This document shows positions 4,774 to 62,170 of a stretch of 64,000 nt of DNA, in pieces. The notes under the pieces were generated by a model. That model was given only the letters and a program-made list of their open reading frames with translations. It did no database searches and had not been told where the DNA came from. The stretch lies in NCBI GenBank assembly GCA_963701095.1, contig OY969564.1:544001-608000 (forward strand). The letters run 5' to 3'. The position numbers were made by a program, and so were the translations under genes. Numbering within the stretch: the stretch's first letter is position 1; the number at the start of each line of letters is the position of its first letter. Origin of the DNA: an uncultured Methanoregulaceae archaeon. GTDB lineage: Archaea; Halobacteriota; Methanomicrobia; Methanomicrobiales; Methanospirillaceae.

Positions 4774-4946
4774 TTTTTTTCCTCACCTAAAAGAAATATA
4801 TTCATGAGAGAATAAACGTTGTTGTCTTTTTTTACACGAAACGGCATATGGGGAATGACCGGAATTCTATAAACACGTCAGAAAAGAGTCCCCATAACGA
4901 AACTATATGTAGAGTCGAGCGAAAATCCATAAACAGAGGGGTAACC

Positions 4947-6978
4947 GTGACTGACGTCATCCTGGTCGTAAAAACCGGAAATGCGCAGCTTAAAAGTAAA
5001 ATATCCAAGATATCGCGCGAATTTTCCTATGACGAAACAGCATACAATCTTCCGATCTCTTTTGCACTGACTGGCGTAGCCGTCCATGACAAGAGCACTG
5101 CCGCCACTGTTTTTACAAAGACCGGTGACAACCCACTCGTGGCGTCCGAATGCCTGCTTGCAGAGGCTACAGCGGCCACAGGAAAAGAATCTGCTCCGTT
5201 TACCGGCTTTATCAGTGATACGGTGATACGGAAACTTGGTTACTCGCTTGTTGACGGGAGTATTCTTGGACTCTCACTTATTGTAGGCACACCTGAAAGT
5301 GCTGGCAGTGCGGCGGCCATATGCCGCGAACTCCAGGAAAAATATATGCTCACGTTCCTTGCAGGTGGCGTTATTCCGACACTTTCCTCTGCCGGTGTAA
5401 AACTTGGCCTTGATTACCGTCTTATCCCCCTTGGATCCAAGCCCCTTCATGGTGTCCATTTTGTGGATATCGTTGCCCGGGTTGCCATGATGTTCGGAGG
5501 CGTTTCCCCAGGAGATACTGGTCGCCTCCTTGCCTATGCAGCGGAACGTGCAAAAGCCATCGTTATTGTCTTTCCCGGGTTAACTGACGAAGAAATAGCT
5601 TTTGTCGATGGCATGCGAGTGCTCGGGTTTCCCATCCTCTCCCTCGGGGGCTATGAAGGTGGAGAATGGACCACGGCCACTCCTGATACCATCGTTCGTA
5701 CGGGTATGGACCTCAAAGGCATCCGTGTTAATGTTACAGCCATTCCTATTCCCATGGGTTGCTCTCCTGCCTTTGAAGGAAAAAGTATACGAAAGGAAGA
5801 GATGCAGGTCGAGTTTGGCGGGGGCCGATCACCTGCTTTTGAACTCTTGCGGATGAAAAATCCCGGCGAAATTGAAGATGGTATGGTTACGGTCATCGGT
5901 CCGGAGATCGATTCCATGAAAGAGGGGGGTGCCTATCCCCTTGGTATAATTATCGAAGTGACCGGAAAATCCATGAAGAAGGACTATGAACCGGTACTTG
6001 AACGCCGTATCCATAATTTTGTTAATTATGGCGAAGGATCATGGCACGTTGCCCAACGGGATCTTATCTGGGTCAGAATATCAAAAGAAGCGTTCGCAAA
6101 AGGTGTAAAAATTGAGCACCTGGGTAAACTCCTTGCCAGTAAGTTCCGGATGGATTTTCCCCAGCTGCTTGACGCTGTCGCTGTCACTCTTATCACGGAA
6201 AAGGAAAAAGTCCTTGTCGGAAAACGGGAAGCGGAGACAATCTATGCCGATAGGGACGCCCGGATCAAAGGCATGCGGGATCACGAAGTTGATACCTATT
6301 ATTCCTGCACACTCTGCCAGACTTTTGCTCCTAACCATGTCTGTATTATCACACCTGAGCGGCCTGCTCTCTGCGGGGCAATCAGACTGGCTTGATGGCA
6401 AGATTGCGTTTGAAATGTCTCCTGCAGGAGCAAACCAGCCGGTCGAGAAAGGATCACTTATCAATGCCCAGAACGGGGAGTTTGAAGGCGTCAACCGGTT
6501 TGTCAAGAAAGCAAGTCATGGTGAGATCGAGCGATGTTCCCTTTATAGTGTTATGGAATACCCCATGACCTGCTGCGGCTGCTTCGAAGTTATAGCACTT
6601 ATGCTTCCCGAAGTCAACGGCATCATGGTAGTCAACCGTGAATACAAAGGAATGACACCCTCCGGCATGACATTTTCTACTCTCGCCGGGACCATTGGCG
6701 GCGGTGCCCAGACCCCGGGCTTTGCCGGGATCTCAAAGAATTATATCTTATCGGATCGGTTCCTCCAAGGTGAGGGAGGTATCGAACGCTTGGTATGGAT
6801 GCCTTCGCAGCTGAAAGACGAACTCAAGCCCCGGCTCGGTCCTCTCCTTACCGCAAAAGGTCATCCGGATCTTTTTGACAAAATCGCTGATGAGACCATA
6901 GCAGAGACCATTGAGGATTTAACAGACTTCCTGAACCGCGTCTGTCACCCGGCCCTTGCGATGAAACCGTTGATGTGA
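4947..6978 (+). CDS. acsB: Acetyl-CoA synthase, bacterial AcsB-type (with N-terminal domain), ~676 aa; frameshift at ~6386
   Basis: A-cluster Cys motifs YSCTLCQTFAPNHVC, PERPALCGAI(S)WLD and PMTCCGCFE. N-terminal ETAYNLP and FTGFISD.VIR.LG..LVDG resemble bacterial AcsB. Removing the extra A at 6386 (AGACT to AGCT) joins ORFs 4848..6395 and 6112..6978. GTG start at 4947 follows GAGGGG. Confidence 0.92.
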
Positions 6979-6988
6979 GGCACACAAG

Positions 6989-7930
6989 ATGATTCCTGAA
7001 CCGCATTTTGGCTGGACCGGCACGGTAGGTGAAGTTATCCTTGGGGCAACCCATTCTGAAGGTGGTACGCGATCGCGTTCGTACAGGATAGGTGGTGGCA
7101 CCACACTTCCCTTCATGGAAAAAGAACAAAAATCCTCTTCACCACTGGTCGCTTTTGAGATATGCGATGATCCCCGGTATTGGTCCCCGATTGTCAATGA
7201 TTTCTGCAGCGATCTTATTCACGATCCGGGCGCGTGGGCAAAGACGGCTGAGATTGCCTATGGCGCTGATCTTGTCAGGCTTTGTCTTACGAGTACCAAG
7301 CAACGGGATTTTTCTGATATAGTATCACTGGAAAAGACAACGGAAACTGTCCTTTCATCGACAACGCTTCCCCTCATTATCGAAGGCAGCAACGAACCTA
7401 AGATCGACAGCGAGGTATTCCAGAAATGTGGTGAGATCGGCCAGGGTGAACGCCTGCTGCTTGGAACCGCCGAAGCCGGAAGGTACCGGAGTATTGCCGC
7501 CGCGGCCCTTGCCTATAACCATGCTATAATCGCCCAGTCTCCTATCGATATTAACCTCGCAAAACAGCTCAATATCCTGCTCAAGGAAATCGGGGTGCCG
7601 CGGGACCATATCGTCATCGATCCCTATACCGGTGCACTTGGCTATGGCTTTGAGTATTCATTCTCTGCTATGGAGCGGATCCGGTTTTCTGCACTCAAAG
7701 GCGATGTTGATCTTGCGATGCCTATGATTTGCGCACCTTCGGATTCGTTGACCATTAAGGAAGTCCGTGAAGCAGATGCAAGCACTCGCAACGCCATTGC
7801 TGTGGAATGGGAATTTACGACAAGTCTTGCTGCAGCAGTCGCTGGTGCGGAAATTGTCTGTGTCAGGCATCCTGATACGGTAAAACGACTGAAAACAGCA
7901 TTTGCAGGCCTCAATACCCGAGGTGTATAA
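6989..7930 (+). CDS. acsD: Corrinoid iron-sulfur protein small subunit (AcsD/CdhD)
   Basis: GGTR...IGG..LPF, SPIDINLAKQLN, DP.TGALGYGFEYSFSAMERIR, RHP motifs. Confidence 0.93.
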   Translation: MIPEPHFGWTGTVGEVILGATHSEGGTRSRSYRIGGGTTLPFMEKEQKSSSPLVAFEICDDPRYWSPIVNDFCSDLIHDPGAWAKTAEIAYGADLVRLCLTSTKQRDFSDIVSLEKTTETVLSSTTLPLIIEGSNEPKIDSEVFQKCGEIGQGERLLLGTAEAGRYRSIAAAALAYNHAIIAQSPIDINLAKQLNILLKEIGVPRDHIVIDPYTGALGYGFEYSFSAMERIRFSALKGDVDLAMPMICAPSDSLTIKEVREADASTRNAIAVEWEFTTSLAAAVAGAEIVCVRHPDTVKRLKTAFAGLNTRGV

Positions 7931-7932
7931 TC

Positions 7933-9267
7933 TTGCCGCTCAAGGCACTGGACATTTACAAGCTCCTGCCAAAGAAGAACTGCAAGGAATGCGGTGATCC
8001 CACCTGCCTGACCTTTGCCATGAAACTTGCCGCGGGAAAAGCAGACCTTGATCTCTGCCCCTATCTTGATGACAAAGCAAAAGCGGTGCTCGGGGCAACA
8101 ACCCGCCCGCCGATTAAACTGGTAAAAATCGGGGTAGGTGAGCGATCCTTTTCGGTCGGCGAAGAGTTTGTTCTTTACCGGCACGACAAGACATTCTACC
8201 ACCCTCCGGGAATTATGTTTGCGGTTTCCGACATCCAGAGCGACGATGAGATTTCTGCTGTGACCGCCCGGGTACGGGATGATACCCTGACCCGCGTCGG
8301 CGCTGACCTGAAATTTAACGGGACGGCGATTGTCAATACAACCGGAACCGTTGAAGCCTATGCACGGGCCGTTGCCGCTGTTGAAAAAACGGCCGGTCTT
8401 CCTGAAGTCCTCATATCAGATAACGCGCAGGCCCTTGCTGCTGCTCTTGTCCTCTGTGGCAGTTACCGGCCGTTGATAAGCGCAGCAACACCGGAAAATT
8501 ATAAGCAGATGTGTGCGCTTGCTAAACAGCATGGCTGTCGCCTGGTTGTCCGGGAACCTACCCTTGAAGGGCTTGCCAAGCTTACCAAAGACTGTGCGGC
8601 TGAAGGGGTTTCGAATGTTGTTCTTGACCTGGCACCAAAGAACCTTGGGGATTATCTCTCCCGCTCGACCGCCATACGGCAGCTTGCCATTACCCGTGAA
8701 GTCCCGGATCTGGGCTATCCGGTCTATCTGGATGCGACTGCTTTTGAAGACCAGGATGCGGCAATTGCTCTTGGTATCGTCAAGTATGCTTCAGTGATTG
8801 TTACATCACCACTATCTCAGCCGTCAGCTAAAGCGGTGCTTACACTTCGCCAGAACATCTATACCGACCCCCAGAAACCCATCCAGATGAACCCTGGCCT
8901 TTACCGGGTTGGTACACCGGGAAAAGATGCACCTGTACTCATGACGGTGAATTTCTCCCTGACCTACTTCACACTCCAGGGCTACCTTGAATCCACCCGT
9001 ATCCCCTGTTTCATGCTGATCGTCGATACGGAAGGTCTCTCAGTACTCACGTCAGTTGCTGCCGGTAAACTCAATGAATCCCTTGTGCGGGATGCCATAA
9101 AGAAATTCGGGGTCGAAAACGAAGTATCACACCGGAAACTGATTATTCCCGGATACGCAGCGCCTCTTTCTGGGAGAATTGAAGAAGCTACCGGATGGAA
9201 AGTGCTGGTGGGACCCCGTGATGCTGCTGAGATCGGTGATTTTCTTGTACAGGAATGGAAACCCTAA
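7933..9267 (+). CDS. acsC: Corrinoid iron-sulfur protein large subunit (AcsC/CdhE)
   Basis: LPKKNCKECGDPTCLTFAMKLA...CPY Fe-S motif; LRQNIYTDPQKP; TVNFSLTYF; DTEGLSVLT; GWKVLVGPRDA. Confidence 0.95.
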   Translation: MPLKALDIYKLLPKKNCKECGDPTCLTFAMKLAAGKADLDLCPYLDDKAKAVLGATTRPPIKLVKIGVGERSFSVGEEFVLYRHDKTFYHPPGIMFAVSDIQSDDEISAVTARVRDDTLTRVGADLKFNGTAIVNTTGTVEAYARAVAAVEKTAGLPEVLISDNAQALAAALVLCGSYRPLISAATPENYKQMCALAKQHGCRLVVREPTLEGLAKLTKDCAAEGVSNVVLDLAPKNLGDYLSRSTAIRQLAITREVPDLGYPVYLDATAFEDQDAAIALGIVKYASVIVTSPLSQPSAKAVLTLRQNIYTDPQKPIQMNPGLYRVGTPGKDAPVLMTVNFSLTYFTLQGYLESTRIPCFMLIVDTEGLSVLTSVAAGKLNESLVRDAIKKFGVENEVSHRKLIIPGYAAPLSGRIEEATGWKVLVGPRDAAEIGDFLVQEWKP

Positions 9268-11175
9268 ATGCGTACTGTTACTTTCCTTCCCAGTTATCAT
9301 AAGATAGAAGCTCCCAGGGGCACGACAATCCTCGATGCAGCACAACGTGCCGGCATCAATATGAATGTTGTCTGCGGCGGCATTGGAAAATGCGGGAAAT
9401 GCGTGGTCTATGTACAATCCGGGAAAGCTGAGTTTGATAAACAGAAATTTGGCCGGTTTTTTACTGAAGAAGAATTGAAAAAAGGTGCCTGTCTTGCCTG
9501 CGTTACCACGATCCAGGGAGACCTCCAGGTAATTATCCCGGAAAGTACGCTGATCCAAGAGCAGAAGATCCTCGTTGAAGGGACGGAAATGGAGATTGAG
9601 TTTCACCCGTCAGTGAAAAAATACTACGTTGAACTCCAACCGCCAACACTTGCCGATCCCTCACCAGACCTCTCCCGTCTCCTCTGGGGTATCCAGAAAA
9701 GGGGCGGACCGGTCGCAGAGAAAATGTACGCACCTCTTGAGGTGATGAGAAAGATCCCCGCACTTCTGCGGCACAGCGACTGGAAGGTTACCGGCACTAT
9801 CGCCCTTGTGCCCGGGGGTTACCGGCTTATCGATATCCAAGAAAATGATACCTCACACAGGCTCTTTGGTGCAGCCGTGGATCTGGGGTCAACGACCGTT
9901 GTCGTATATCTCTGGGACTTAATTACCGGGAAAATAACTGCGGTTGCTTCCAATTACAATAAACAGATCAGTTGCGGGGAAGACATTCTTGCACGCGTGA
10001 ATTATGCACAGAAGAACGGGATTGCAAAACTCCAGACGCTTGCGGTTGAGAGCATCAATGCTGCGTTGACCTCTGCTGCGAATTCCGCTGGGATTGATCG
10101 GGAAGATATTTACGAGGTCGTGGTTGCAGGAAACACCGTCATGACCCATATGATGCTCGGTATCGACCCAGGCTACATTATCAAGGAACCCTACGTACCA
10201 GTGGTCCAGCGGGCTCTTTCCGTTGCCGCTGCACGTATAGGAATTACCTGCAATGACAATTGCGGGCTCTTCGCCTTTCCGGCGGTTAGCGACTTTATTG
10301 GCGGTGATATCATTGCCGACATTCTTGCCTGCGGTATGAGTGAAAAGGATGATATTTCTCTTCTCGTAGATATTGGAACGAATTTCGAGGTCGTGCTTGG
10401 CAATCGCGACTGGATGTTTTCCTGTGCTGGCGCCGCAGGGCCGGCTCTTGAAGGTGGGGAAGTGCTCTTTGGTATGCGGGCAAATCCCGGCGCTATCGAT
10501 AAGATTTCCATTGATCCGGTTACCCTTAAACCGGTCTATTCCACCATCAACAGTATCAAGCCCCGGGGTATCACCGGTTCCGGGCTTATCGATATTCTAG
10601 CCGAATTGCTTACTTCCGGAGTTATAGACCGCACAGGCCGGATTAACACGGAGTATGAGAATCCCCGGATCCGTACAGGTGTCCATTTCCCTGAATATGT
10701 TATTGCGTTTGCAAAAGAGACTGATATCGGAAAAGACATTGTCATCACGGAAAATGATATCAAGAACCTGATTATGAGTAAAGCCTCCATTCACGCTGCC
10801 TGTGTGACACTCATGAAAGAGGCAGCGGTTACTCGGTTTGATATCGCTACTATCTATTTTGCAGGTGCCTTTGGTAACTATATCAACAAGAAAAATGCAA
10901 CGACTGTGGGTTTGATCCCCGAGATCGATCTCGATCGGATAAAAAACATTGGGAACGGGGCAGTGGCGGGTGCAAACCTCGCTCTTATCAATCGCAGGCA
11001 GCGGAAACTGCTCGATGGTATCGCAGGAAGGATAGCTTACATCGAGCTCAATGCAGAGCCTTCATTTATGGACGAATACACGTCAAGTGCATTTCTCCCT
11101 CACACTGATCTCTCGCTCTTCCCCGGAGTCCAGGCTCTGCTTGAGTCAGAGCGTGGGAAAAAGGAGGAAACCTGA
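9268..11175 (+). CDS. ASKHA-domain reductive activator of corrinoid protein (RACo/AcsV-like) with N-terminal [2Fe-2S] ferredoxin
   Basis: CGGIGKCGKC...LAC ferredoxin; AVDLGSTT, AGNTVMTH, FIGGD, DIGTN.E, AAGPALEG, GSGLID, AGAFG motifs. Confidence 0.92.
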   Translation: MRTVTFLPSYHKIEAPRGTTILDAAQRAGINMNVVCGGIGKCGKCVVYVQSGKAEFDKQKFGRFFTEEELKKGACLACVTTIQGDLQVIIPESTLIQEQKILVEGTEMEIEFHPSVKKYYVELQPPTLADPSPDLSRLLWGIQKRGGPVAEKMYAPLEVMRKIPALLRHSDWKVTGTIALVPGGYRLIDIQENDTSHRLFGAAVDLGSTTVVVYLWDLITGKITAVASNYNKQISCGEDILARVNYAQKNGIAKLQTLAVESINAALTSAANSAGIDREDIYEVVVAGNTVMTHMMLGIDPGYIIKEPYVPVVQRALSVAAARIGITCNDNCGLFAFPAVSDFIGGDIIADILACGMSEKDDISLLVDIGTNFEVVLGNRDWMFSCAGAAGPALEGGEVLFGMRANPGAIDKISIDPVTLKPVYSTINSIKPRGITGSGLIDILAELLTSGVIDRTGRINTEYENPRIRTGVHFPEYVIAFAKETDIGKDIVITENDIKNLIMSKASIHAACVTLMKEAAVTRFDIATIYFAGAFGNYINKKNATTVGLIPEIDLDRIKNIGNGAVAGANLALINRRQRKLLDGIAGRIAYIELNAEPSFMDEYTSSAFLPHTDLSLFPGVQALLESERGKKEET

Positions 11176-11176
11176 T

Positions 11177-12217
11177 ATGGTAAAGGTGATAGCACCACCG
11201 TACTCCCGTGCTACTGGTGTGGGGGCCCTCCCGCATACCGACCCGGTGCTTGCGTGCGATGACGTTCTTAATGTGTTTCCCGAATTTCCCTATACACCGA
11301 CGCTTCCTGACCACGGATTGCTCGAAAGTATTGTTTTCAACGACGCAGCACAACTCCCGGGCCAGCTTATCCGCGAAGGCAGGTTGCTTTATGATAGTAA
11401 CCGGGATAACACCACTGCGATGGAACAGGTATACTTGGACTTTGTTGATAAGAATTTTTTACCTTACTGCCTCGATACCGATCATGCATCCGCATTTTGC
11501 GAGATGATGACCCGGCAATTCCCTCAGGCTACTATTCTAAAGTGCCAGGTAACCGGACCGGTCACTTTTGGGATGCAGGTTGTTGATGCCGACAAACGGC
11601 CTATCTATTACGATAGTCAGCTGGCAGACGTACTCTCCAAAATGATTGCTCTGAAAGCCCGCTGGTGTGAAAACGAAATGCTAGTACGGACCGGGATTAA
11701 AGAGACGTTAGTGGTACTTAACGAACCCTACTTTGCTTCGCTTGGATCCTCAGTTGTGCCGCTTGACCGTGGAACAGTTAAGGCAGGCTGGGAGGATATC
11801 GCGTCGCTTGTACAAGGTGGCCTTGGTGTTCATTGCTGCTCGAATACGGACTGGGAGTTTATTATCGGCCTCGACCCCTCAGTTATCTCTCTTGATGCCT
11901 ATGCAACAGCGACAGAATTCCTGCTTTACGTAGACGCAATTACGGGATATATGGAACGGGGGGGCGTTATTGCGTGGGGGATAGTACCTGCACAGTATAA
12001 GCTTTTTGCAGCTGAGACTGTAGATTCGCTCTATGCACGGTACCTTGCGATACGCACCCAGCTGACAAAGCACATCCCGGAAGAACTTTTTGATGCCCAA
12101 TCACTCATTACGCCTTCATGCGGGATCCGGTTTGCTGACCGGAATGGCGCAAATGAGATCCAAGGCGCTGCGGCTGAGATTTCCTGTCGGATCCGGGCTC
12201 TGACAAACCTTTCCTGA
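11177..12217 (+). CDS. Core (MetE C-terminal-like) methylcorrinoid-dependent methionine synthase, MesB-like
   Basis: ATGVGALPH.DP..AC, KCQVTGPVTFG, NEPY, GVHCCSNTDW, SLDAY, IAWGIVP, LITPSCG. Zn-ligand pattern His-x-Cys...Cys present. ~346 aa, with no N-terminal folate-binding half. Confidence 0.75.
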   Translation: MVKVIAPPYSRATGVGALPHTDPVLACDDVLNVFPEFPYTPTLPDHGLLESIVFNDAAQLPGQLIREGRLLYDSNRDNTTAMEQVYLDFVDKNFLPYCLDTDHASAFCEMMTRQFPQATILKCQVTGPVTFGMQVVDADKRPIYYDSQLADVLSKMIALKARWCENEMLVRTGIKETLVVLNEPYFASLGSSVVPLDRGTVKAGWEDIASLVQGGLGVHCCSNTDWEFIIGLDPSVISLDAYATATEFLLYVDAITGYMERGGVIAWGIVPAQYKLFAAETVDSLYARYLAIRTQLTKHIPEELFDAQSLITPSCGIRFADRNGANEIQGAAAEISCRIRALTNLS

Positions 12218-12229
12218 CACCTGATAATT

Positions 12230-12997
12230 ATGTCCACACACCCGTTTACCATTGCACTCTCCGGAAAAGGTGGTACCGGTAAGACTACGGTAAGTTCTCT
12301 TCTTGTTCGGTCTTTTATCGAAGCCGGTGAAATTCCGGTACTCGCTGTTGATGCGGACCCAAATGCAAACTTCCACGAGGCTCTGGGTGTTGAAGTGAAA
12401 GAGACGCTTGGCAGTATGCGGGAAGAAGCCTTTTCCCGGAACATCCCACCGGGTATGAACCGGCACGATTATGTGAGGTTCCGGTTCCGTCAGGCGCTCG
12501 TCGAATCCAACGGTTTTGATCTTGTTGCCATGGGCCGTCCTGAAGGTACGGGATGCTACTGTTTTGCAAACGATCTTCTCTCCGAATGTATGCTACAGCT
12601 TGAACGGCAGTACCGTTTTATTGTGATAGATACCGAAGCAGGAATGGAGCATATCAGCCGGGGCACAATTGGCAAGCCGGATATTTTGTTAATCGTGAGC
12701 GATCCTGGTGCACGAGGACTGCGGACAATTACCCGGATCCGTGAGATCGCTATACAGCTCGGGCTTGAACCTTCACGAATCCATGTTGTGTATAACCGGT
12801 ATAAATCGGGAGCAGCACCGGTGGATATAGGAAACGAACTTCCGATCGCGATAATTCCAGAAGATCCGGTAGTCGAGGCAGCCGATCTTGCAGCGACACC
12901 GGTATCACAGATTCCGGAATCAAGCCCGGCACGACGTGGGGTCCGTGCTCTGGCAGAAAAACTGATAAAAATGGCGTATACCCGAAGTGAGATATAG
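12230..12997 (+). CDS. cooC: CooC/AcsF-type Ni-insertion ATPase
   Basis: GKGGTGKTT, VDADPN, GRPEGTGCYC, DTEAGMEHISRG. Confidence 0.92.
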   Translation: MSTHPFTIALSGKGGTGKTTVSSLLVRSFIEAGEIPVLAVDADPNANFHEALGVEVKETLGSMREEAFSRNIPPGMNRHDYVRFRFRQALVESNGFDLVAMGRPEGTGCYCFANDLLSECMLQLERQYRFIVIDTEAGMEHISRGTIGKPDILLIVSDPGARGLRTITRIREIAIQLGLEPSRIHVVYNRYKSGAAPVDIGNELPIAIIPEDPVVEAADLAATPVSQIPESSPARRGVRALAEKLIKMAYTRSEI

Positions 12998-16274: not shown

Positions 16275-19200
16275 TTACTGTGCTTTTTCGTAGCAGATCA
16301 GTGCTTCTTCGTGTTTGCCCAGTTTGTCGAGCGTGGAACCGACATCGTTCCAGACCTCTTTTCGCTGGGGATCGATTTCAAGGGCACGTTTGAATGACGT
16401 AAGCGCCTCCTGATATTTCTCCAGTTCCTGCAATGCCCGACCCTGGTGGATCCATGCATCGACAAAATCCGGCTGCAGGGCAATCATGGCACGGAACGAC
16501 TCTGCCGCATCCTCGAATTGGCCCAGAGCTTCAAAAGCGCTTCCCCGGGTAAAGTATGCAATCGAGAATGAGGGGTCAATAGCGAGCGCCCGGTCATAGT
16601 ATTCGATTGCACTCTTGTGATCGTTCATGCCGGCAAATGTCATACCCCGCCGGGTCCAGCCAACTGCATTTTCCGGATCCCGTTTAAGTCCTTCATCGTA
16701 CGCCTCCTGGGCTTCAGCAAATTTTCCGAGATCATAGAGGACATTTCCTTTACCAAACCATGCAGTCGCAAGATCCGGCTCTTTTTCAAGGGCTTTTTCA
16801 AATGCTTCAAGAGCGTCGCGGTACATGCCAAGCTCAGCAAGCGAGGTTCCTTTATGGGAGAATGCATCGGCACCATGGGTGTCAAGCTCTAATGCCCGGT
16901 CATAGGACTTGATGGCGTCACGATATTGTTCAACAGCCGCGTATGCCAAGCCACGGTCCCGGTAAAGGTCAGGAAAATCTGGTTTTATGCTGATAGCACG
17001 GTCATATTCCGTGATAGCTGCATCGAAGCTACCTTCATCATACAACGTTCGGGCCTTCAGGTGATGTGCCTGGTAGCAGGATGGGTTTATCTCCAATGCA
17101 CGATCGAATGCCCGTATCGCGCCATCGGGGTTCTGGAGCGCTAGGTACGTCTTTCCTTTCTGGAAGATAGCATCAGCATAACCGGGGCTTGCCGCCAGTG
17201 CCTGGTCGAAAATGGCAAGGGCATCCTTAAACTTACCCAGATGGTAAAGCGCCCTTCCCTTCTCATAGAGTGCCTCCGGGTAATCGCTTTTAATCTTGAG
17301 GGCCGAATCAAACGATGCAACTGCTTCCTCGTACTGTCCCCGGTGTATGAGGGCAATACCTTTGTAATAATAGGATTCCTCAAATTGCCGGTTTATGGCA
17401 AGGGCACGGTTGAACGCTTCGATTGCCTCATCATTCTGTTTCCGGTTCAGGTGGGCACGTCCTTTGTAATAGAATGCCTCAGCAGATTCCGGCTGGAGCG
17501 TCAGGACTTTTTCAATTGCAACAAGTGCTTCTCCGGTTCGTTCGAGGTGGATAAGCGCCCGTCCCTGGTTAAGAAGTGCCAGTGCATAGTTAGGATTGAG
17601 GGTAAGGGCATGGCTGTAACATTCCAGTGCCTCGTCGTACCGGTCAAGGTTTGCCTCGGCTATACCACGATAGAGCCATGCTTCAGGATATTCGTCCTTT
17701 TGGGCAAGTGCCCGGTCAAATGCGGAAATAGCCTCGTGGAACATTGAGACGCCGCAAAGAGCCCGCCCTTTTGCGTAGAAAGCCCGGGCACATTCCGGGT
17801 GCTGGATAAGGGCAGCATCAAAGTTCTTGATCGCTTCCTGATTCCGGCCTAATGCCCAGAAAGAAAGTCCGGCCTGGTAATAGGCACGTTCATCCTTCTT
17901 ATCAAGCGCAATCGCTTTTGTATAACTTATTATGGCGTCTTTGTGACGATCCTGTGCTGCAAGAGCCATGCCTTTCCCGGTCCAGATATACGCGTAGTTC
18001 GGGCGGAGACGGAGTGCATGGTCAAAGATAGTGACGGCATCTGCAGGCCGCTGTAACCGAAGGAGCGCCATACCTTTGTGGTATAATGCTTCGTCATGTT
18101 TGGGACTCAGGGTAAGGGTACTGTCATATGCAGAAACAGCCTCGCTGTACATTCCAAGCGCAAAAAGGGTCCTTCCCTTATAGTAATACGCATCTGAAAA
18201 CTCGGGTTTTAATGCGAGGGCACGATCGAACGCGGTAACAGCATCATCAAAAGTATCGAGCGCAAAATGGGCCCGGCCCATAAGGTACCAGGCATCAGCG
18301 TTTTGCTCATCGGTTTCCAGCGCCTTTTTGTACGAGTCTATAGCGTCACGGTACCTGCCGAGATCGAATAACACCATGCCCCGGTGAAGCAGGCCGGGAA
18401 TCGAACCTGGATCGGAACTGATAACGTGATCGAATGCTTCAATGGCAGCATCAAGTTTTCCTGTTGCTGAAAGGGAGATCCCTTTCCGGTAGAATGCGTC
18501 GTTATTACACTCATTGAGATTAATTTCCTTGTCAAAGGCAAGGATAGCCTCATCGTGCCTCCCAAGCTCTGCGAGGGCAAGACCTTTGTAAAAAAATACC
18601 CCGGAATAATTTTTATCTATGAGCAATGTCTTGTCAAAAGTCTTAACTGCCTCCCGGAACATCCCGAGTGTCGTAAGCGTTTTTCCTTTCTCGAAAAGTG
18701 CATCCGCAAAAACCGGATCAATTTCCAGAGCTGCATCGAATGCTTTTACCGCATCCTCAGTACGTCCGGTCTGCTCCAGCGCTATTCCCTTGTAATAATG
18801 GGTCTTTGCATCTGATGGCCGAAGCGTAAGAGCTGCTGCATAACTACTGACTGCCTCCCCGAATCTTCCGAGCAGGTCCAGCGATCGCGCTTTCTGGAAC
18901 TGCGCGTCGAAATGTTCTGGTACTAGGTTAAGCACCTGATCGAATGCAGCAATGGCATCCTCATAATGACCAAGCCGCGCAAGGACACAGGCCAGTTCGA
19001 ACCAAGCATCGGCATTTTCGGGACTGTACACCAAAAGACGGTCATACGATTCCGCAGCCTCCGCGTACCGTTCCATGGCAGCGAGGGAAGCCGCACGGAA
19101 ATAGAGAGCCCCGGCGTTTTTGGGATCCCCGTCGAGTGCAATATCCAGGGATTCGCACGCGTCCGCGTATTTTGCTGCATAGAAAAGCGCTCTCCCCCGT

Positions 19201-22200
19201 TCGAAACTGGCTACCGGATCTGAAGGTTCAAGTTCAAGCACACGATCAAACGAATTAATGGCTTCCTCATTTTTATTCAGCGCAGCTAAAGCCCGTCCTC
19301 TTTCAAGATAGGAGCGGGCATCATCAGGGCGAAGCGCAATCGCACGATCGAATGCGTTGACTGCAGTTTCGTAATGGCCGATATGCACCAACGCACCGCC
19401 TTTTTTAAACCAGATCTCAGGATCGTCAGCATTGAGGGAAAGTGCCGCGTCAAACGCCATATCCGCATCTTCGTATCGCTCCAGTGCGAGAAGCGACAGG
19501 CCCCGCAGGTAGGCGGGTTCGTAGTTGTCCGTCAGCTGGGTAAAGGCAAGCCTGAATATTTCCTGGGCTTCGTCATGTCGGCCAAGGGACGAAAGGGCTT
19601 TTGCTTTCTCGAAAAGGATTTCACCGTTACCGGGTTCCTTGCCAAGTGCGATATCAAAGAGATGAATTGCCTCTTCGAACTGCCCGAGCCGGGACCATGC
19701 TTTTCCATCAGTAAATAAAAGGGTTATGTCGTGGGGCTCGATCTGGCGGGCTTTTTCAAATGCTTGTACGGCATCATCGTCTTTACCAAGACACTCGGAA
19801 GCAAGACCGCGGTGATACCATGCCCCGAAATGATCTGTTTTTTGGGAAAGCATACGGTCAAATGCGGTGATTGCATCGGTAAATTGGCCGAGGCGTTCCT
19901 GTGCAAGACCAAGATAATAGGCTGCATCGTCAAACGATGCATCCAGTTCAAGGACCCGGCTAAACGAAGTAACCGCTTCTTTATCATGTCCGAGTTCGAG
20001 TAGAGCACGGCCATTTTCGTAATACATTTCCGGTTTCGTATCGTCATGGGAAATCGCCGCAAAAAATGCGTCGACAGCATCGTAGTAGTTGCCAAGACGG
20101 GACAATGCCACGCCTTTTTCGTAGTATGCGATATACTTGTTGCCGTCAATTTCCAATGCGTGGTTAAATGCGGTAACGGCTTCATCATAGTGCCGTAACC
20201 GGGAATGTGCACGCCCTCTGGCAAACCATGCATCGAAATTTGCCGGGTCAAGCCGGATCGCCGCGTCGAAGGTGGCAATGGCGTCGGCATATTTTTTCAG
20301 GTTCGAAAGTGCAATGCCTTTATTGAGAATCGCGCCGACACTAGATGCATTAATGGCAATCGCGGCATCAAACGCAATAATAGCGTCTTTATGTTTTCCA
20401 AGCCGGGCCAGTGCAAGTCCTTTCTCGAAATAAGCCACAGCAAAATTCGGGTCGATAGACGAGGCCATCTCAAATGCCTCGATTGCCTGTCGGTCCCGGC
20501 CAAGTTTGGCAAGCGCACTGCCTTTATCGTAATAGGCGCTTGCATATTTCGGGTTAATAGAAAGCGCCCGGTCAAAGGAGGGGATTGCTTCTTCAAATCT
20601 TCCCATACCGGAAAGTGCTACTGCCCGGTCATACCACCCGTTTGCATTGTTGGGTTTGAGTTCGAGGGCTTTTGTGAGCGCTTCAATTGCAGCCCGTAGA
20701 TTCCCTGCCGATAATAATGCACTTCCCTTCCTGAACCAAGCTGATGAACACGATGGATCTGCTGAAATGACCTGATCAAAACTGTCTATTGCTTCAGCAT
20801 ACCTGCGGAGACCGGCATAGGCTTTCCCCCTTCTGTATGAAGCTGCACTATCAGTCGGTGATAATGCAAGAGCGCGTTCGAATGATTCCAGTGCCTCCTC
20901 AGGGTGTTCCTGGTCAAGCAGGACAGTTCCCTTGAGAAGCCAGACCTCGGATTCATTATTTTCCAGGGAAAGGGACTGCTCCAACGTAACAAGAGCTTCG
21001 TCGGGCTTCGTAAGTTTAACCAGCATACGAGCCCTGTGATAGAGCACTTTAGCATTCTGGGAATCAAGTTCGAGGAGTTTGTCAAATGCCGCAAGTGCCT
21101 GTTTATATCGGCTCAACCCGGCATATGCAAGACCTGTGTGGAACAGCGCATCCCGTATTGAAGGATCATGATCGAGCGCCTGTTTAAACGATCGAATCGC
21201 TTTTTCATATTTTCCTAGAGTGAATAACGCGAGTCCCTTATGGTAATGGGCGTCGGCATGCTCAGGCACATACTGGATCGCTTGATCGAATGCCTCAATC
21301 GCTGCATCATATTTTTTTAACCGGGAAAGCGCCAGACCTTTTTTGAATGCTGCATCAGTGTAAGACTGTTCTAAACCGAGAACCAAGTCGTACGCCCGAA
21401 GTGCCTCTTCGTCATTGCCGATTAGGGCAAGTGCTTCCGCTTTATAGAACGCAGCATCAGCAGATTTGGGATCCAGCACAAGTGCCTGGTCAAACGCTGC
21501 AACTGCCGCTATTCCCTCTTTTTTAAAGTAGAGTGTCTCACCTTTTGCGAGCCAAATAAACGAGTTCTCCGGTTCGAAGGCGAGGGCTCTGTTGATAGCC
21601 TCGAGCGCTGTATCATACTTTTTCACCGCTATAAGGGATCGTCCACGGTAATAATGTATCACAGATGATTCAGGACCAAGTGTAAGGGCAAGGTCAAATG
21701 TTGCGGCGGCGTCCGGGAATCTTTCCAACATATAATAGGTGAGCGCTTTCCTGAACGCATAGTCCTGAAGGGAAGGAGCAAGATCCAGTGCACGTTCAAA
21801 AGCCGGGAGTGCTTCTCCGAATTGTTCCTGGTTGAAAAGGACCAGGCCTTTCTGGTACCATGCAGCTGTACAACTCTCGTCATGCACCAATGCCTGTTCA
21901 AAGGATTCCAAGGCTTCGTTATGTAGGGAAAGGTGGGCGTAAGCAATGCCTTTATAGTACCATGCAGCGGCATTTTTTTCCTCTATGGAAAGCAATTTGT
22001 CAAAGATACCAATGGCTTCCTCCCATCGTTCATTGTGCAGAAGAGATTTTCCTCGGTAGAAAAGGGTAAAGGGATCCTTTGCATTGCGTTTCTGGGCTTT
22101 TGCAAATGATTCTGCCGATTCCTTAAACCGGTTGAGCCGGTAAAGGGCGTATCCCTTGCATGAATATGCACGTGCATTTCCTTGATCATATTCAATAGCT

Positions 22201-25200
22201 CGGTCAAGCGCTATTACCGCATCCTCATATCGGGAAAGATGTACGAGATCGGTACCCATGACAAAGTGGGCGATGACATTTTCCGGGTCAAGGGAAATGG
22301 CCCGGTCAAAAAACCCGACGGCTTCTTCGTACCGCTTGAGTTCTGAAAGCGATTGCCCTTTTTTAACCAGACTGCCAATATGGTTACTATCGATTTCGAT
22401 TGCCTGATCAAAAGATAAGATGGCCTCTTCAAACTTTTTAAGGGCGAAATACGCGCAACCTTTCTCGTACTGGATTCCAACACTTGAACAACCTAGATTG
22501 AGATACCGGTCAAAAAGGGCAATAGCCTCTTCGTATTTTTCCATCCGGGATAGGATAAAACCGGCCTGTTCGAGCGCGTCAGCGTGGTTCGGACTGAGAT
22601 TAAGTGTCTTTGCAAAAGCTGTAATCGCTTTTTCATCCCGGTGAAGTTCGACATAGCAAAGGCCAAGGCGATAAAAATGCTCAGGCGAGGTGGGTTCTAC
22701 TGCACAAGCTTCTTCGTAGGTAGCTGCGGCTTCCTTGAAGCGTTTCAATGCTTCTAGCGCTTGTCCTTTTGCCGTAAGAAGGGGTATGTCACCAGGGGTG
22801 ATGGCAAGTGCACTATCAAAGGCAGAAACCGCTTCCTCGTTTTTACCGATCGCTGCAAGAGCCCGCCCTTTATGGTAGTACGCCGGCGGGTACTTAGAAA
22901 CCAGGTGAAGGATATGATCAAATGCCCCTACGGCTTCTTCATACCGTTGGAGCTCGATCAAATCAAGACCCATGTCAAACCAGGCATGCGTGTTTGAATT
23001 ATCAAGTTCAATGGAACGGGAAAGTGCAGGAACCGCATCTGCATATTCCTTGAGGGCAGAGAGTGCTACACCTTTATAATACCAGGCCTCGGCAAAATCC
23101 GGCTGGATCCCGATTGCCAGATCGGAAGCCTGAACTGATTCTTTGTCCTCTCCCAGGAAATGGAGTGATATTGCTTTATTGAGCGCCGATTCAGCGCTCC
23201 TGGGATCGTATTCAAGTGCCTTTTCAAAGGAGAGAATGGACTCTTTATACATTCCCTGTGCTGCAAACGCTACACCCCTAAGATGGTATACTGAAGCATT
23301 ACCGGGATCAACGGAGAGCGCACGATCAAAAGTTATGACGGCATCGCTGTATCGTTCAAGCTTCAAGAGAGCAGCAGCGTGATAATATACCGCCTTCTTA
23401 AGATGCGAGTCTATCCCTTCTGCCCGGGTAAGACATGTAATCGCGTCATCGTACCCGCCCAGTTCATACAATGCAAGACCCTTGTATTGGAGTGCCTCTG
23501 CAAACGAGGGATTCAGCACAAGGACATGGTCGCAGGCATCAATGACTTCGGAATAATCTCCTCAGCTCGTATAAGGCACGACCTTTCTGGAACCATGCAT
23601 CAGTATGTTCGGGATGTTCGGCAAGGACTTTGTTGAATTCTTTGACCGCCTCCCGGAACCTGCCCAAAGTTGAAAGAGATTCTCCTTTATGGAACCTCGC
23701 CGGCAGGCAGTCAGACTTTATCGAGAGCGCTGCCTCGAAAGAGAGAATTGCATCTTCAAGGTTTGCAAGACCTTCAAAGGCTCGACCCTTCTGGTAGTGG
23801 AGGTTGGGATTTTTCGGATCGATCGCAAGCGCCCGGTCCGTTGCTTCAAGTGCTTCCTGGTACCTGCCCAGGTGAGAAAGGATGAGTCCCCTGAATCGCC
23901 ACGCTTCGGTGAAGTCTTTTTGTAAGTCTGTTGCTTTTGCAATAGAGAACAATGCGTCTTCGTCCTGACCCAGGTTATGCAGGGACATAGCTTTGTTGAA
24001 TGCAGATTCCGCGCTCTCCGGATCGCATTCAAGCGCACGGTCATACGCGTAAATGGAGTCCTGGTACAGGCCCTGGGCGGCCAATGCTACACCTTTAAGG
24101 TGGTGTGCTAAAGCATTACCGGGATCAAGAGAGAGCGCACGATCAAAAGTTATGACGGCATCGCTGTATCGTTCAAGCTTTAAGAGAGCAGCGGCGTGAT
24201 AATATACCGCCTTCTTAAGATGCGAGTCAATCCCTTCTGCTCGGGTAAGAGATGTAATCGCGTCATCGTACCCGCCCATTTCATACAATGCAAGACCCCT
24301 GTATTGGAGTGCCTCTGCAAACGAGGGATTCAGCACAAGGACATGGTCGCAGGAATCAATGACTTCGGAGTATTCTCCAAGATCGTATAATGCACGGCCT
24401 TTCTGGAACCATGCATCAGCATGTTCGGGATGTTCGGCAAGGACTTTGTTAAATTCTTTGACCGCCTCCCGGAACCTGCCCAAAGTTGAAAGAGATTCTC
24501 CTTTATGGAGCCTCGCCGGCAGGCAGTCAGACTTTATCGAGAGCGCTGCCTCGTAAGAAATAATTGCATCTTCAAGTTTTGCAAGACCTTCAAAGGCACG
24601 ACCCTTCTGGTAGTGAAGGTTTGAATTTTTCGGATCGATCGCAAGCGCCCGGTCCGTTGCTTCAAGTGCTTCCTGGTACCTGCCCAGGTGAGAAAGAATG
24701 AGTCCCCTGCACCGCCACGCTTCGGTGAAGTCTTTTTGTAAGTCTGTTGCTTTTGCAATAGAGGACAATGCGTCTTCGTCCTGACCCAGGTTATGCAGGG
24801 ACATGGCTTTGTTGAATGCAGATTCCGCGCTCTCCGGATCGCATTCAAGCGCACGGTCATACGCGTATATGGAGTCCTGGTACAGGCCCTGGGCGGCCAA
24901 TGCCACACCTTTAAGGTGGTGCGCCGGCGCGTACTTGGGGAGAAGAAGCAATGTTTGATCGAATGCCTCTACGGCTTCGCGATACCGCTCCAGTTTCAGA
25001 AGTGAAGCCCCACGGTGGAATATTGCACCATCGATATGGGGATCGCTTTCAAGAGCCTGGTCAAACGATAAAATCGCTTCTTCGTACCTCCCCAGTTCAT
25101 ACAGAGCAAGTCCTTTGTGGTAATGGGCATCCGGATAACTGGACTCAATTTCAAGTGCATGATCATAGGCTTCGATAGCATCGGTGTGATCTCCGGAATC

Positions 25201-28200
25201 AAAGAGTGCCCGTCCCTTCTGGTACCAGGCATGGAAATTGTGGGGGTTCTCTGCAAGGGTCCGGTCAAAATCCCTGATGGCTTCGCCATATCTTCCTAGA
25301 TTGTACAGCGAAACCCCTTTTCGCATCCGTGCCTCAGAATACCGGGGTTTAAGCGCAAGGGTCTTTTCAAAGGCAGTAACTGCTTCCTGGTGCCGACCGA
25401 GACCATCGTATGCCCGGCCTTTCTGGAAATAGACCGGAGCATTATCCGGATCATATATCAATGCCCGGTCAAATGCATCAAGTGCTTCCTGGTATTTTCC
25501 CAGTTTGGAAAGAGCAACACCCTTGAAGTAGTATCCCGGAGAGTTGCTGGTATCCTTTTGGAGGTTTTTATCGAATGCATCTATGGATTCCTGGAATCTG
25601 CCGAGTTTGGAGAGCGCCACGCCTTTTGAATAAAAGACTTCTGTATATACCGGTTCTATGTCCAGTGCCTGATCAAACGCGTTGATTGCATCCTGGTACT
25701 TCCCGAGATCAAGAAGCATTTTTCCCTTGTTATACCATGCCGGTGCAAATGATTCCCGGATCCGTAGGGAAGATTCAAAGGCGGCAAGCGCTTCTCTTGC
25801 CTTCCCCGAATTTGCGAGGGCAAGACCCATATGGAAATGAGCTTCGCTGTTGTTTGCGTCTATTTCGATTAATACTTCAAAAACTTGAAGGGCTTCTTCA
25901 ATACGGTTAATTTTTTCAAGGGCAAACCCCTTATAAAGAAATGCGACAGTACTCCTCTGATTTAAAGTGATTGCATTGTTGAACGCATCGATGGCATCCT
26001 GATATCGTCCCAGATCGAAAAGGGCCCGGCCATCTTTGATCCAGCCCTCTTCCTGATTGGGATTCATCTGGAGCGCTTCAGCGTAGGCCTCTGCGGCTTC
26101 TCCGGTCCGTCCCAGGATATTAAGGGCATCCCCTTTTCGCATCCAAATTTCGCCGAGGTTTGGGTTAATATCCAGAGCTTTATTGAACGAGGAAACGGCA
26201 TCGACAATTCTTCCCAGATCCGCAAGAAGGATACCTTTTCGTGCCCATGCATCGGCATTGCCCGGATTGATTTCAAGGACCCGGGTGTATGCCGCCAAAG
26301 CGTCCTGTTTTTTTGCAAGACAATCGAGCGCCGTACCCTTCTGCATCCAAATCGCGACTAACGTCGGGTTTAACGAAAGGACACGATCAAATGTTTCCAC
26401 GGCCTCGGCATAGCGCTGGAGTACCATGAGCGAGTCTCCGCGGCAGAGAAGCGCTTCAAGTTGCGATGGGTTTGCCGCAAGGCTGCGGTTAAGTGACGCA
26501 ACTGCCTCTTCGTGCCGGCCCAGTTTGGCGAGGACAATCCCCTGGTACATGGACGCATCAGTTAATGCGGGATTCATGGAGATTGACGTATTAAGGGCCG
26601 CCAGTGCCTCGTTATAACGCTGGGACTGAAGAAAGGCTATTCCCTGGTAATAATAGGTCGAGGCATTTGCAGAGTCAAGGACAAGGGCATCAGAAAATGC
26701 CCGGATGGCATCCTCGAAACGGTCACATTCCAACAGGGAGATCCCCATGTAATGGTGGGCAAGTGCATTTGCCGGGTTGTAGTCAAGCGATCGTTCGAAC
26801 GCAACGACGGCCTCATCGAATCGTTCCCTGCCCGCGTAGGCAATGCCCAGATAATAGAGAGCCTGGTGGTTATCCGGTTCCTGTACCAGCAGCCGTTCAA
26901 AGGTCTTTATAGCATCCTCATACCGTTCGCGTTGGGCAAGGGCAATCCCTTTCTGGTACAGGGTCTTTGGATTATCAGGTTCAATCTCCAGTGCCTGATC
27001 GTACGAGATGATTGCTTCGAGCTGTTTACCGAGACGGGAAAGTGCATTGCCTTTCTCAAAAAAAGCACTTGCACAGCGACGGTTGATTTCAAGGACCCGA
27101 TCAAATGCCCTGGTTGCCTCTTCGTACCGGGAGAGTTCGGAAAGAGCGATGCCTTTGTAATACCATGCCTTTTCATCTCGAGGTGCCATCTCGATGGCAC
27201 GGTTCAGGCCGGTTATTGCGTCGGCATACCTGCCAAGGTACACGAGAGCTGTGCCCCGGCGAACCAGTGCCTGCACATTTTTTGGATTAATGCCGATGAC
27301 CCGGTCAAAGGCCTCAATTGCTTCATGAGCGAGACCAAGCTCCACATAACAAAGCCCGATTGAGTACCAGCCATCAGAAAGATGGGGTTCCTGCTCCACC
27401 GCAGATTCAAAGGCAATGACCGCATCTCTCCACTTTTCCATTGCCATGAGGGCAAGTCCTTTTTCATAGAGGGCTTTTGTATTCTGTGGGGAAAGTGCGA
27501 GTACAGCATCGTATGCTGCAGCGGCATCTGCATACTGCTCCTGTTTAAAGAGTACTGTTCCCCGTTGATAAAGGGCAAGGGTATGTGAAGGATCAATTGC
27601 TATAGCATGGTCAAAAGATATGAGTGCCTCATCCAGCATACCCAATTTAACAAGAGCCACGCCCTTGTTGTAATAGGCATTAACGTAGTTGGGATAGATG
27701 CTAATTGCATCGTCGAGTGCTTCTATCGCTGGCTGAAACCGCTCTGCCTTTAACAGGGCACTGCCTTTGTCATAATAGACCTGTGCATTGTCAGGCCGAA
27801 GGGCTATGCTTTTATTGAACGCTTCGAGAGCTTCATCAATCTTCCCGGTTTTAACAAGGATCTGACCTTTCTGGTGGTACGCCTGAGCATTACTGGGGTT
27901 TTCATTTAAGACACGATCGAACTCTAAAAGGGCTTCTTCACTGTTCCCAAGTTTAGCAAGGGCAAACCCCTTGTGATACACGGCATCCGAATAGTCAGGC
28001 CGGATTTTAAGTGCGCGGTTATACGCGGTGACTGCTTCACCAAACCGGCCGAGGCTGGCAGACGCAAGTCCTATCTGGTATGCGGCCGAGGCACAGCCGT
28101 GATCAATTGCAAGAGTATGTTCAAAAGCGCTAATTGCTTCGTCTTGTCTTCCGAGCCTCGAGAGTACAATCCCCCGGAAATAGGATGCCCCGGCATGGTC

Positions 28201-50634: not shown

Positions 50635-51323
50635 CGGATCCTGCATATTTAAACGGTATCGTCAAGGTTCTGTTCGTCTGCGTGATTATTACGTCTGCGT
50701 ATATCATAACAACAAGAAACCTCATCAGTCTGGTCCGGGTATATGCACTCCAGTCACTTGCACTTGTCGCAATAGCCCTTTCACTTGCCTGGTACGAAGC
50801 TGATTCCGTCCTCCTTGCTATTGCTATCATTACGTTGGTTTTCAAGGTGTTCCTGATCCCTTACTTCATCGCGACCATTCAGGAAAAAATCCGGATCAAA
50901 CGGGATATTGACTTCCATTTCCTGAGCCCTACCAGTTCGTTGTTAATTTCGCTTGCTCTGATGATTGTCGTCTATATCATGCTCTCACGGATCTTCCCGG
51001 ACATGATGGTAAAAGGCAGTCTATTTTTCTTCGGGGCTGTTATCGGGATCTCGCTTGTCCTGATGGGGATGATGGTCACCTTTTCCCGTAAACGGGCAAT
51101 AACCAAAGTACTGGGCTACTTATCGATGGAGAATGGTGTTCTGCTTTTTGGTATTTTTGCCACCGAGCTTCCGTTCATAATTGAGTTCCTGATCATCATC
51201 GATCTTGTCATCCTCATTATCCTGACCACCATCCTTACCGTAGGGATCGATTCCACGCTTGAGGAGTACCATAACCGGCTTCACCGGTTCTATCTCTGGG
51301 AAGAACAGGAGGAAGCAACATGA
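50631..51323 (+). CDS. hyfE: HyfE-like membrane subunit
   Basis: YALQS, KVFLIPY, GYLSMENG, PFIIE..D; ATGA overlaps on both sides. Confidence 0.85.
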   Translation: MTDPAYLNGIVKVLFVCVIITSAYIITTRNLISLVRVYALQSLALVAIALSLAWYEADSVLLAIAIITLVFKVFLIPYFIATIQEKIRIKRDIDFHFLSPTSSLLISLALMIVVYIMLSRIFPDMMVKGSLFFFGAVIGISLVLMGMMVTFSRKRAITKVLGYLSMENGVLLFGIFATELPFIIEFLIIIDLVILIILTTILTVGIDSTLEEYHNRLHRFYLWEEQEEAT

Positions 51324-62069: not shown

Positions 62070-62170
62070 TGCCTTACCACAGGAAAACTGCCACGTTTTG
62101 GAGCATGAACAGAACCGCAGGCGATATAAACATAGATATAATATAAAGCCTTTTAACTTGTTAGAGAGCA

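Follow-up and report, generated by a model that had tools for sequence, protein, structure and literature searches.

What use would a methanogen have for a bacterial-type acetyl-CoA synthase whose operon contains a putative core methionine synthase and no carbon monoxide dehydrogenase (CODH)? The question is raised by six plus-strand genes at positions 4947–12997 of the window, the whole 64,000-nt stretch of DNA analyzed here, from an uncultured Methanoregulaceae archaeon (contig OY969564.1 of assembly GCA_963701095.1); gene coordinates below are positions in the window, and those prefixed C1 refer to the rest of the same genome. Open reading frames (ORFs) and profile matches identify the genes, in order, as acsB, acsD, acsC, RACo, a gene for a MesB-like protein of 346 amino acids (aa), and cooC, separated by gaps of 10, 2, 0, 1, and 12 nt. 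A Pfam and NCBIfam scan detected no cdhA, cdhB, cooS or AcsE-type gene within or adjoining the cluster. The initial annotation of this locus, made from the sequence alone, correctly listed the six genes, their order, their 0–12 bp gaps and the lack of CODH and AcsE genes at the locus. It also proposed that the cassette is a self-contained module, like that of Dehalococcoides, providing the methyl group of methionine, a proposal that fared less well.

On balance it is probable, though far from assured, that the cassette is the Methanoregula copy of a six-gene unit conserved in archaea and bacteria, with all its genes intact, and that it works as an auxiliary, acetyl-CoA-cleaving methyl relay. 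AcsB and the MesB-like zinc enzyme would be the two ends of this relay, joined through the corrinoid iron-sulfur protein (CoFeSP) that acsC and acsD encode. In the most likely direction, AcsB would split acetyl-CoA into CH3-Co(III)-CoFeSP, CO, and CoA, and the MesB-like enzyme would then methylate a zinc-activated thiol, which by default is taken to be homocysteine. RACo would keep the AcsC/AcsD cobalt in the active Co(I) state and CooC would load nickel into AcsB, with the CO possibly oxidized by the archaeal CdhA of this genome. Our data establish what the genes are, that they are intact, conserved and co-occurring, and the fold and zinc site of the MesB-like protein. We infer which way methyl flows, which thiol receives it and what becomes of the CO, and also that RACo serves CoFeSP, that CooC serves AcsB and that AcsB and the MesB-like enzyme exchange methyl through CoFeSP.

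Conservation of the cassette and direction of methyl flow

The window lies within a single 2.63-Mb contig that also carries mcrA, and relatives of the 346-aa protein bear Methanoregula labels. The same genome encodes a complete archaeal acetyl-CoA decarbonylase/synthase (ACDS) in a cdhA-B-C-D-E-RACo operon (C1:222921–231825) preceded by two MinD/CooC-like genes; its cdhA scored 1112 bits versus a cut-off of 781. It also encodes a 300-aa, MesA-like PF01717 core methionine synthase in which the usual motifs are present (C1:1614677–1615579, 152.8 bits; MetH was not searched for). A profile search found no cooS in this genome, and the 346-aa protein has no paralogue there. Acetate activation genes are present. 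AcsE was not found in the genome, where the sole Pterin_bind match above the cut-off is a dihydropteroate synthase beside FolD (MtrH was not searched for). The cassette route would be auxiliary, since both a complete archaeal ACDS and a methionine synthase of the MesA type are encoded elsewhere in this genome.

These findings narrow the earlier claims. The description "CODH-less" holds for the locus and not for the genome, and the self-contained Dehalococcoides-like module lacks two of its defining features, as the genome has a CODH and a second methionine synthase. Nor would the cassette be the only route to the methionine methyl group, given the MesA-like gene. On whether a CODH encoded elsewhere forms a synthase with the cassette AcsB, the outcome is mixed: a CODH is present, but with its own CdhC partner. 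The FolD gene (above the cut-off), the dihydropteroate synthase gene and a gene for a CofE-like gamma-glutamyl ligase are adjacent at C1:1941526–1943935, which hints at some folate-type metabolism in this methanogen.

We surveyed 61 genomes of the source's family, the source genome included; these are related genomes, and counts among them are not independent. Bacterial-type AcsB occurs in 48 of the 61 (45 full length and above the cut-off, two partial, plus the source genome). The MesB-like gene occurs in exactly those 48 genomes and in none of the other 13. In CODH content, the 48 cassette genomes divide into 13 with cdhA and cooS, 13 with cdhA only, 16 with cooS only, and six with neither, three of these six being 96–98% complete. 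Judged from gene content, no other comparative signal in our data is as strong as this pairing of AcsB with the MesB-like protein irrespective of CODH. The pairing holds without CODH and thus fits acetyl-CoA cleavage better than synthesis. Furthermore, all 12 of the family loci that we fetched, which represent eight other genera, have these six genes in an unchanged order; the cassette order is therefore not due to chance. Across the order, the MesB-like gene was found in 57 of 151 sampled genomes, representing five of six families.

The cassette also has counterparts outside the archaea. Beyond the order, the nearest relatives of the 346-aa protein are 32–37% identical to it and carry names such as Candidatus Deferrimicrobium, Thermodesulfobacteriota, and Heimdallarchaeota, with the JGI label "methionine synthase II (cobalamin-independent)". 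Starting from one such protein (P0134), we retrieved 80 metagenome loci that contain close relatives of it; 29 of these loci are at least 7 kb long. Twelve of these 29 have acsB-acsD-acsC-RACo-mesB-cooC in the same order as the window, and in three more this order is truncated where the contig ends. Seven others begin at the contig start with the last two or three cassette genes, and the remaining seven carry the MesB gene without other cassette genes. The contigs with the cassette have a GC content of 66–68% (about 50% in the window), and each of their six proteins is 32–55% identical to its counterpart in the window. The names Candidatus Deferrimicrobium and Thermodesulfobacteriota for this high-GC cassette come from the 90% cluster of P0134 only, the contigs themselves being unlabelled. 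The 80 loci yielded no cooS. Cleavage is thus favored because the pairing holds both in CODH-free genomes and in bacterial loci without cooS, and it also matches the flow proposed for Dehalococcoides in the passages of Deobald et al. (2020) used here.

Metagenomes also contain long, fused forms of bacterial-type AcsB (P0319–P0359) joined to CoFeSP (PF03599) or CODH (PF03063) domains. These are 35–44% identical; some are labelled Methanomassiliicoccales and some have intein/LAGLIDADG domains.

Several observations weigh against the cleaving relay. The source genome has a full ACDS and 42 of the 48 cassette genomes have some CODH (cdhA or cooS), and a MesA-like gene in 60 of the 61 family genomes leaves no apparent need for a second methionine synthase. 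Furthermore, in four genomes from three genera (G012, G025, G027, and G015) a cooS and a second cooC lie just 3' of the cassette on the same strand; this cooS scored 653–677 bits with TIGR01702 in the three copies scanned. Synthesis of acetyl-CoA therefore keeps some probability. The cassette could then be a second acetyl-CoA synthase working in the synthetic direction with CO from CdhA or CooS, the MesB-like enzyme only drawing off methyl for methionine. Its CH3-CoFeSP would be made from methyl-tetrahydromethanopterin (methyl-H4MPT) by another methyltransferase or by AcsCD itself. Consistent with such a role, the cassette AcsB is the only acetyl-CoA synthase subunit found in the 16 genomes that have cooS and no archaeal cdhA. 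We nonetheless consider synthesis rather unlikely. The source genome has its own complete ACDS and no AcsE-type pterin methyltransferase, six cassette genomes are without any CODH, and cooS was found neither in the source genome nor in the 80 bacterial loci.

An ORF of 329–368 aa lies between the cassette cooC and the downstream cooS (L022:4742–5749, L023:4601–5686, L024:10194–11300, and L027:3819–4808). Three scanned copies had no NCBIfam match, and one of them had no Pfam match either; the 335-aa copy has no homologue in the source genome. This ORF could encode a partner that is otherwise lacking from the cassette in its CODH-linked form.

The MesB-like protein and its substrate pocket

The acceptor end of the proposed relay is the 346-aa protein (11177–12217, plus strand), which we classify as a MesB-like core (MetE-type) zinc methyltransferase from its fold model, zinc ligands and position in the tree. 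The protein itself has no Pfam or NCBIfam match, and 19 of its 128 aligned relatives touch PF01717 at E-values up to 0.1. In the ESM Atlas, it led to unnamed clusters and to one cluster in which 26% of the members have PF01717. Searches by sequence against solved structures, with the single protein or with a 128-row profile, did not find MetE, which was found by fold comparison alone. The AF2 model of the protein has a pLDDT of 97.2 and matches MesD (3rpd) with a Z score of 26.1 (fold comparison, VIA). Model residues 1–344 align with the C-terminal barrel of MetE at Z scores of about 25 (25.1 with residues 383–733 of 1xdj). Matches to URO-D and to the Methanosarcina methyltransferase 4ay7 reach 19–20, clearly under those to MetE and MesD. 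The protein thus consists of a single MetE-type catalytic barrel and has no N-terminal folate-binding domain.

The predicted zinc ligands are His219 (11831–11833), Cys221 (11837–11839), Asp240 (11894–11896), and Cys315 (12119–12121). This set corresponds to the His-Cys-Asp-Cys ligands, with Asp instead of Glu, given for MesB in the part of Price et al. (2021; PMC7857596) drawn on here, with the numbering offset by 4–5 residues from their Q3Z939 positions. All four ligands are kept in 33 of 33 family copies, and each position is kept in 128–130 of 131 representatives at 50% identity. The protein scored 142–237 bits (median 194) against 80 Chloroflexota MesB-like homologues and 142–198 bits against the nine of them labelled Dehalococcoidaceae. 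These homologues stand in as a proxy, DET0516 not being among them, for the MesB threshold of at least 130 or 173 bits to DET0516 (Price et al., 2021). Against the genome's own MesA-like protein, identity is 24% (BLASTP E-value 9e-5).

In the tree, the family copies group as a single clade (SH-aLRT 93) whose long stem measures 1.3 changes per site; the clade falls within the bacterial MesB-like radiation, with MesA as a distant outgroup. Phylogeny thus places the 346-aa protein inside MesB, not outside it, and the initial annotation of a core methionine synthase stands as regards the MesB grouping and the zinc site. A CoFeSP is the predicted methyl donor of MesB in the text consulted (Price et al., 2021), and one is encoded in the same operon (AcsC and AcsD), with a second, archaeal pair elsewhere in the genome. 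A complex prediction that paired the MesB-like protein with residues 318–444 of AcsC, its corrinoid domain, scored 0.00 in a run without controls and speaks neither for nor against binding.

The part of the annotation that is less secure is the methylation of homocysteine. Price et al. (2021), in the section used here, map MetE Ser433 and Asp599 to residues 15 and 177 of the MesB protein Q3Z939 and describe this Ser and Asp as "mostly conserved" in MesB. Ala17 (11225–11227) and Asn182 (11720–11722) stand where MesB and MetE have these homocysteine-binding residues, an equivalence drawn from sequence alignment and a match to the MesA motifs rather than from superposed structures. Asn55 (11339–11341) replaces a Gln invariant in the 80 Chloroflexota copies; our guess is that position 55 also lines the pocket. 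These three replacements add to the case against a relay ending in methionine. Because of Ala17 and Asn182, homocysteine methylation is a less safe inference, and it may be that homocysteine is not the acceptor.

The replacements are widespread among the methanogens. The 33 family copies have Ala (18), Gly (7), or Ser (8) at position 17 and Asn (27), Gly (1), or Asp (5) at position 182. Eleven of 12 sequences fetched from other families of the order were counted, with G097 left out; the eleven, from four families, have Ala (7) or Gly (4) at position 17, Asn (8), Ser (2), or Asp (1) at position 182, and never Gln at position 55. Elsewhere the residues are kept: 118 of the 131 representatives have Ser at position 17 and 123 have Asp at position 182. 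The 80 Chloroflexota copies have Ser (74) or Thr (3) at position 17 and, without exception, Asp at position 182, and Ser, Gln, and Asp occupy the three positions in all 15 copies from bacterial cassettes. Taken together, the alignments indicate that the pocket change is real, clade-wide at substrate-binding positions and present in most Methanomicrobiales copies.

Such a change is what would be expected if the Methanomicrobiales MesB-like enzyme had been retuned to another thiol (coenzyme M or a small methylthiol) or to reverse demethylation, with a product other than methionine. The long stem of the family clade and the availability of MesA for methionine synthesis are consistent with this idea, as is the presence of corrinoid:coenzyme M methyltransferases in the same fold class (4ay7, Z score 19.8). 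However, the model resembles MetE and MesD clearly more closely than URO-D and 4ay7, Asn could still bond to an amino group, and five family copies keep both Ser and Asp within the same cassette. Because of the altered pocket and the near-universal MesA, we regard another thiol as a serious rival to homocysteine, yet judge retuning in these methanogens to be unlikely on balance. Less likely again is its fullest form, in which the MesB-like enzymes of the Methanomicrobiales as a whole have abandoned homocysteine. They would then use CH3-CoFeSP to methylate a different thiol, for example coenzyme M, with the acetyl-derived methyl, or run backwards and feed methylthiol carbon into acetyl-CoA. If true, hydrogenotrophic methanogens would have a CODH-independent shunt from acetyl-CoA to methylthiol or methane that bypasses H4MPT and Mtr.

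Two individual copies deserve a record. The MesB-like protein of G042, a genome of the same genus (L031), keeps Ser and Asp, yet it nests in the tree among copies with Ala or Gly and Asn; this genome is 98% complete, and neither cdhA nor cooS was seen in it. For the copy in G007, selenocysteine was considered for an in-frame TGA and rejected, as the TGA is the terminal stop.

Gene features, the acsB frame and assembly quality

In the deposited assembly, acsB is broken. The frame that opens at 4848 or 4947 ends at a TGA (6393–6395), directly after the fourth cysteine of a C-x2-C-x8-C-x9-C motif, and the remainder (about 6382 to 6978) continues in an adjacent frame. In the Pfam ACS_CODH_B_C profile, the two pieces meet exactly between positions 47 and 48; they separately score 563 and 317 bits with NF040764 (cut-off 800). 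We aligned Logan contigs of four public runs (X1, X3, X5, and X6) to the cluster. Two of these runs belong to one study: X1, which may be the source sample (depth 12.8), and X3, from a different sample (depth 8.62). In the contigs of each, a single letter is missing, the base at 6386 on the plus strand, and there are no further differences from the window over 1446 and 3091 nt, respectively. Base 6386 lies outside the coverage of the X5 and X6 contigs, which come from other studies.

With base 6386 omitted, positions 4947–6978 encode 676 aa without a stop. The mended protein aligns over its full length with all 12 orthologues compared (1001–1421 bits), starting from orthologue residues 6–63. 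Because the contigs of two runs lack the extra base and the mended frame is open, the frameshift is, on this evidence, an assembly error and not the mark of a pseudogene, and the gene is intact in the organism. The initial annotation was right about the identity of acsB and overlooked that, as deposited, it is not a single intact ORF. A genuine frameshift in a cassette that is decaying in this strain would agree with the deposited sequence, which does contain the break. It is very improbable, given that the contigs are otherwise identical to the window and that all 45 full-length family orthologues (866–944 bits with NF040764) are open, a stop occurring only in this genome's copy. Similarly split genes elsewhere in the assembly argue against decay as well, as does its marker completeness of 86% (97–99% for other genomes of the genus), with which systematic indel error fits.

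Three other split genes were noted. A class I/II aminotransferase gene on the minus strand (236–1341) is divided over at least two frames, with Pfam positions 2–139 and 212–361 in separate ORFs; an assembly indel is again the probable cause. Two AMP-forming acetyl-CoA synthetase paralogues (C1:641267–643083 and C1:1644729–1646548) are split at the same profile position (317–322), at a G run one base short for the frame, which looks like systematic sequencing error. The assembly thus contains indel errors that mimic pseudogenes, a reason for caution in reading this window.

The acsB frame could start at ATG 4848 or GTG 4947; we regard the GTG as a reasonable start because it is preceded by a purine-rich GAGGGG (4936–4941, 5 nt upstream), a likely ribosome-binding site, and yields the 676 aa of orthologue length. 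An A/T-rich, TATA-like stretch at 4790–4802 on the plus strand, read by eye in a 73-nt gap 5' of the first ATG, is a candidate archaeal promoter. The first part of acsB (4947–6385) encodes the N-terminal bacterial-type domain and the CdhC core (Pfam CdhC, 1.8e-66; ACS_CODH_B_C positions 1–47; NF040764, 7.1e-169, positions 7–508 of 705). It includes the four-cysteine motif (aa 454–476, nt 6306–6374), which we take to hold the [4Fe-4S] part of the A-cluster. The second part (6387–6978) encodes the C-terminal domain (ACS_CODH_B_C positions 48–245, 4.3e-86; NF040764 positions 509–705), with a Cys-Gly-Cys motif (nt 6574–6582, aa 543) that presumably binds the distal nickel. The N-terminal domain of about 300 aa and the best models, NF040764 and NF007078, make AcsB bacterial in type, as initially annotated.

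Downstream, acsD (6989–7930) encodes a short form of the CoFeSP small subunit (313 aa; NF003376, 374 bits, cut-off 280; Pfam CdhD, 4.1e-36). The large, corrinoid- and [4Fe-4S]-binding subunit of 444 aa is encoded by acsC (7933–9267; NF003195, 551 bits, cut-off 306; Pfam FeS and CdhD) and is 38% identical to the archaeal CdhE of the same genome. RACo/AcsV (9268–11175), a predicted ATP-dependent reductive activator of the corrinoid protein with 635 aa, has all four RACo Pfam domains (Fer2, RACo_linker, Raco_middle, and RACo_C_ter) and scores 565 bits with NF040756, under the cut-off of 800. CoFeSP and RACo thus show their usual domain make-up: an Fe-S/corrinoid large subunit, a TIM-barrel small subunit, and a 2Fe-2S plus ASKHA activator. 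The last gene (12230–12997) encodes a CooC/AcsF-like P-loop ATPase of 255 aa with a Cys-x-Cys motif. Its matches are generic (Pfam AAA_31 and CbiA; in NCBIfam, MinD-type only), and its conserved position in the cassette suggests that it is likely a nickel-insertion helper.

The flanking genes are unrelated to the cassette. Upstream are genes for a PEGA-domain protein and a metallo-beta-lactamase-fold protein, and downstream, on the opposite strand, one for a fusion of HAD and pyruvoyl arginine decarboxylase. Farther along the window, two adjacent giant ORFs on the minus strand (16275–23519 and 23539–29331; 2414 and 1930 aa) consist almost entirely of tetratricopeptide repeats. The AT skew is strong and of opposite sign in two regions, about -0.22 at 48000–52000 and +0.22 at 62000–64000.

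Comparison with known systems

A link between mesB and CoFeSP in methanogens has already been published. According to the passages of Price et al. (2021) used here, MesB occurs in some methanogens, mostly together with MesA, and mesB lies in an operon with acsC and acsD. The organism family and the linkage of mesB to acsCD are the same as in our cassette. The difference is that the text in question names acsC and acsD only, not AcsB, RACo or CooC as fixed partners, and mentions neither independence from CODH nor the loss of Ser and Asp in methanogens. A limited literature search, which included passages of PMC2686161, found no publication on a CODH-less acetyl-CoA synthase in the Methanomicrobiales. 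Nor did it find in print the six-gene make-up with AcsB, RACo, and CooC, its independence from CODH, the altered pocket, or the bacterial twin (no dedicated paper search was made for the twin).

For this window alone, the finding is ordinary. If the cassette does split acetyl-CoA for its methyl group, many peat and sediment methanogens would connect acetate to one-carbon metabolism by a second route, independent of pterins, and would also be a source of CO. The pairing of AcsB with MesB, the bacterial occurrence and the altered pocket sharpen the published prediction to the question of which thiol is methylated.

The closest system in the same genome is the archaeal ACDS (cdhABCDE), which has homologous acetyl-CoA synthase, CoFeSP, and RACo parts. 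It differs in that its CdhC has no counterpart of the roughly 300-aa N-terminal domain and matches positions 296–700 of NF040764 only, and in its longer CdhD and CdhE (412 and 477 aa). Furthermore, it includes cdhA and cdhB and has no MesB-like gene. The portion of a FEBS J review consulted here notes only "some homology" between the clostridial and Methanomicrobiales acetyl-CoA synthases.

Mechanistically, the closest model is the Dehalococcoides route, although the source organism, as a methanogen, is expected to make methyl-H4MPT. For the incomplete Wood-Ljungdahl pathway of Dehalococcoides mccartyi, the passages of Deobald et al. (2020; PMC7005905, citing Zhuang et al., 2014) propose transfer from acetyl-CoA to CH3-CoFeSP and on to homocysteine, with release of CO. 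That system shares with the cassette a bacterial-type AcsB, CoFeSP, a MesB-type enzyme (core-MetE) and, in the same source, the absence of AcsE. It differs in that the genome studied here has a CODH (the archaeal cdhA) and a MesA-like methionine synthase. The wider Chloroflexota differ in two respects. The mesB-like gene stands inside the acs cluster here, whereas no acsB, acsC or acsD was found near MesB within the retrieved flanks of any of 80 Chloroflexota loci (Dehalococcoidia and relatives). The Ser, Gln, and Asp of the pocket are kept there and changed here. The high-GC bacterial cassette shares with the window its six genes, their order and strand, and the absence of a nearby cooS. The two differ in the pocket of MesB, whose Ser, Gln, and Asp are retained in the bacterial copies and replaced in the window copy.

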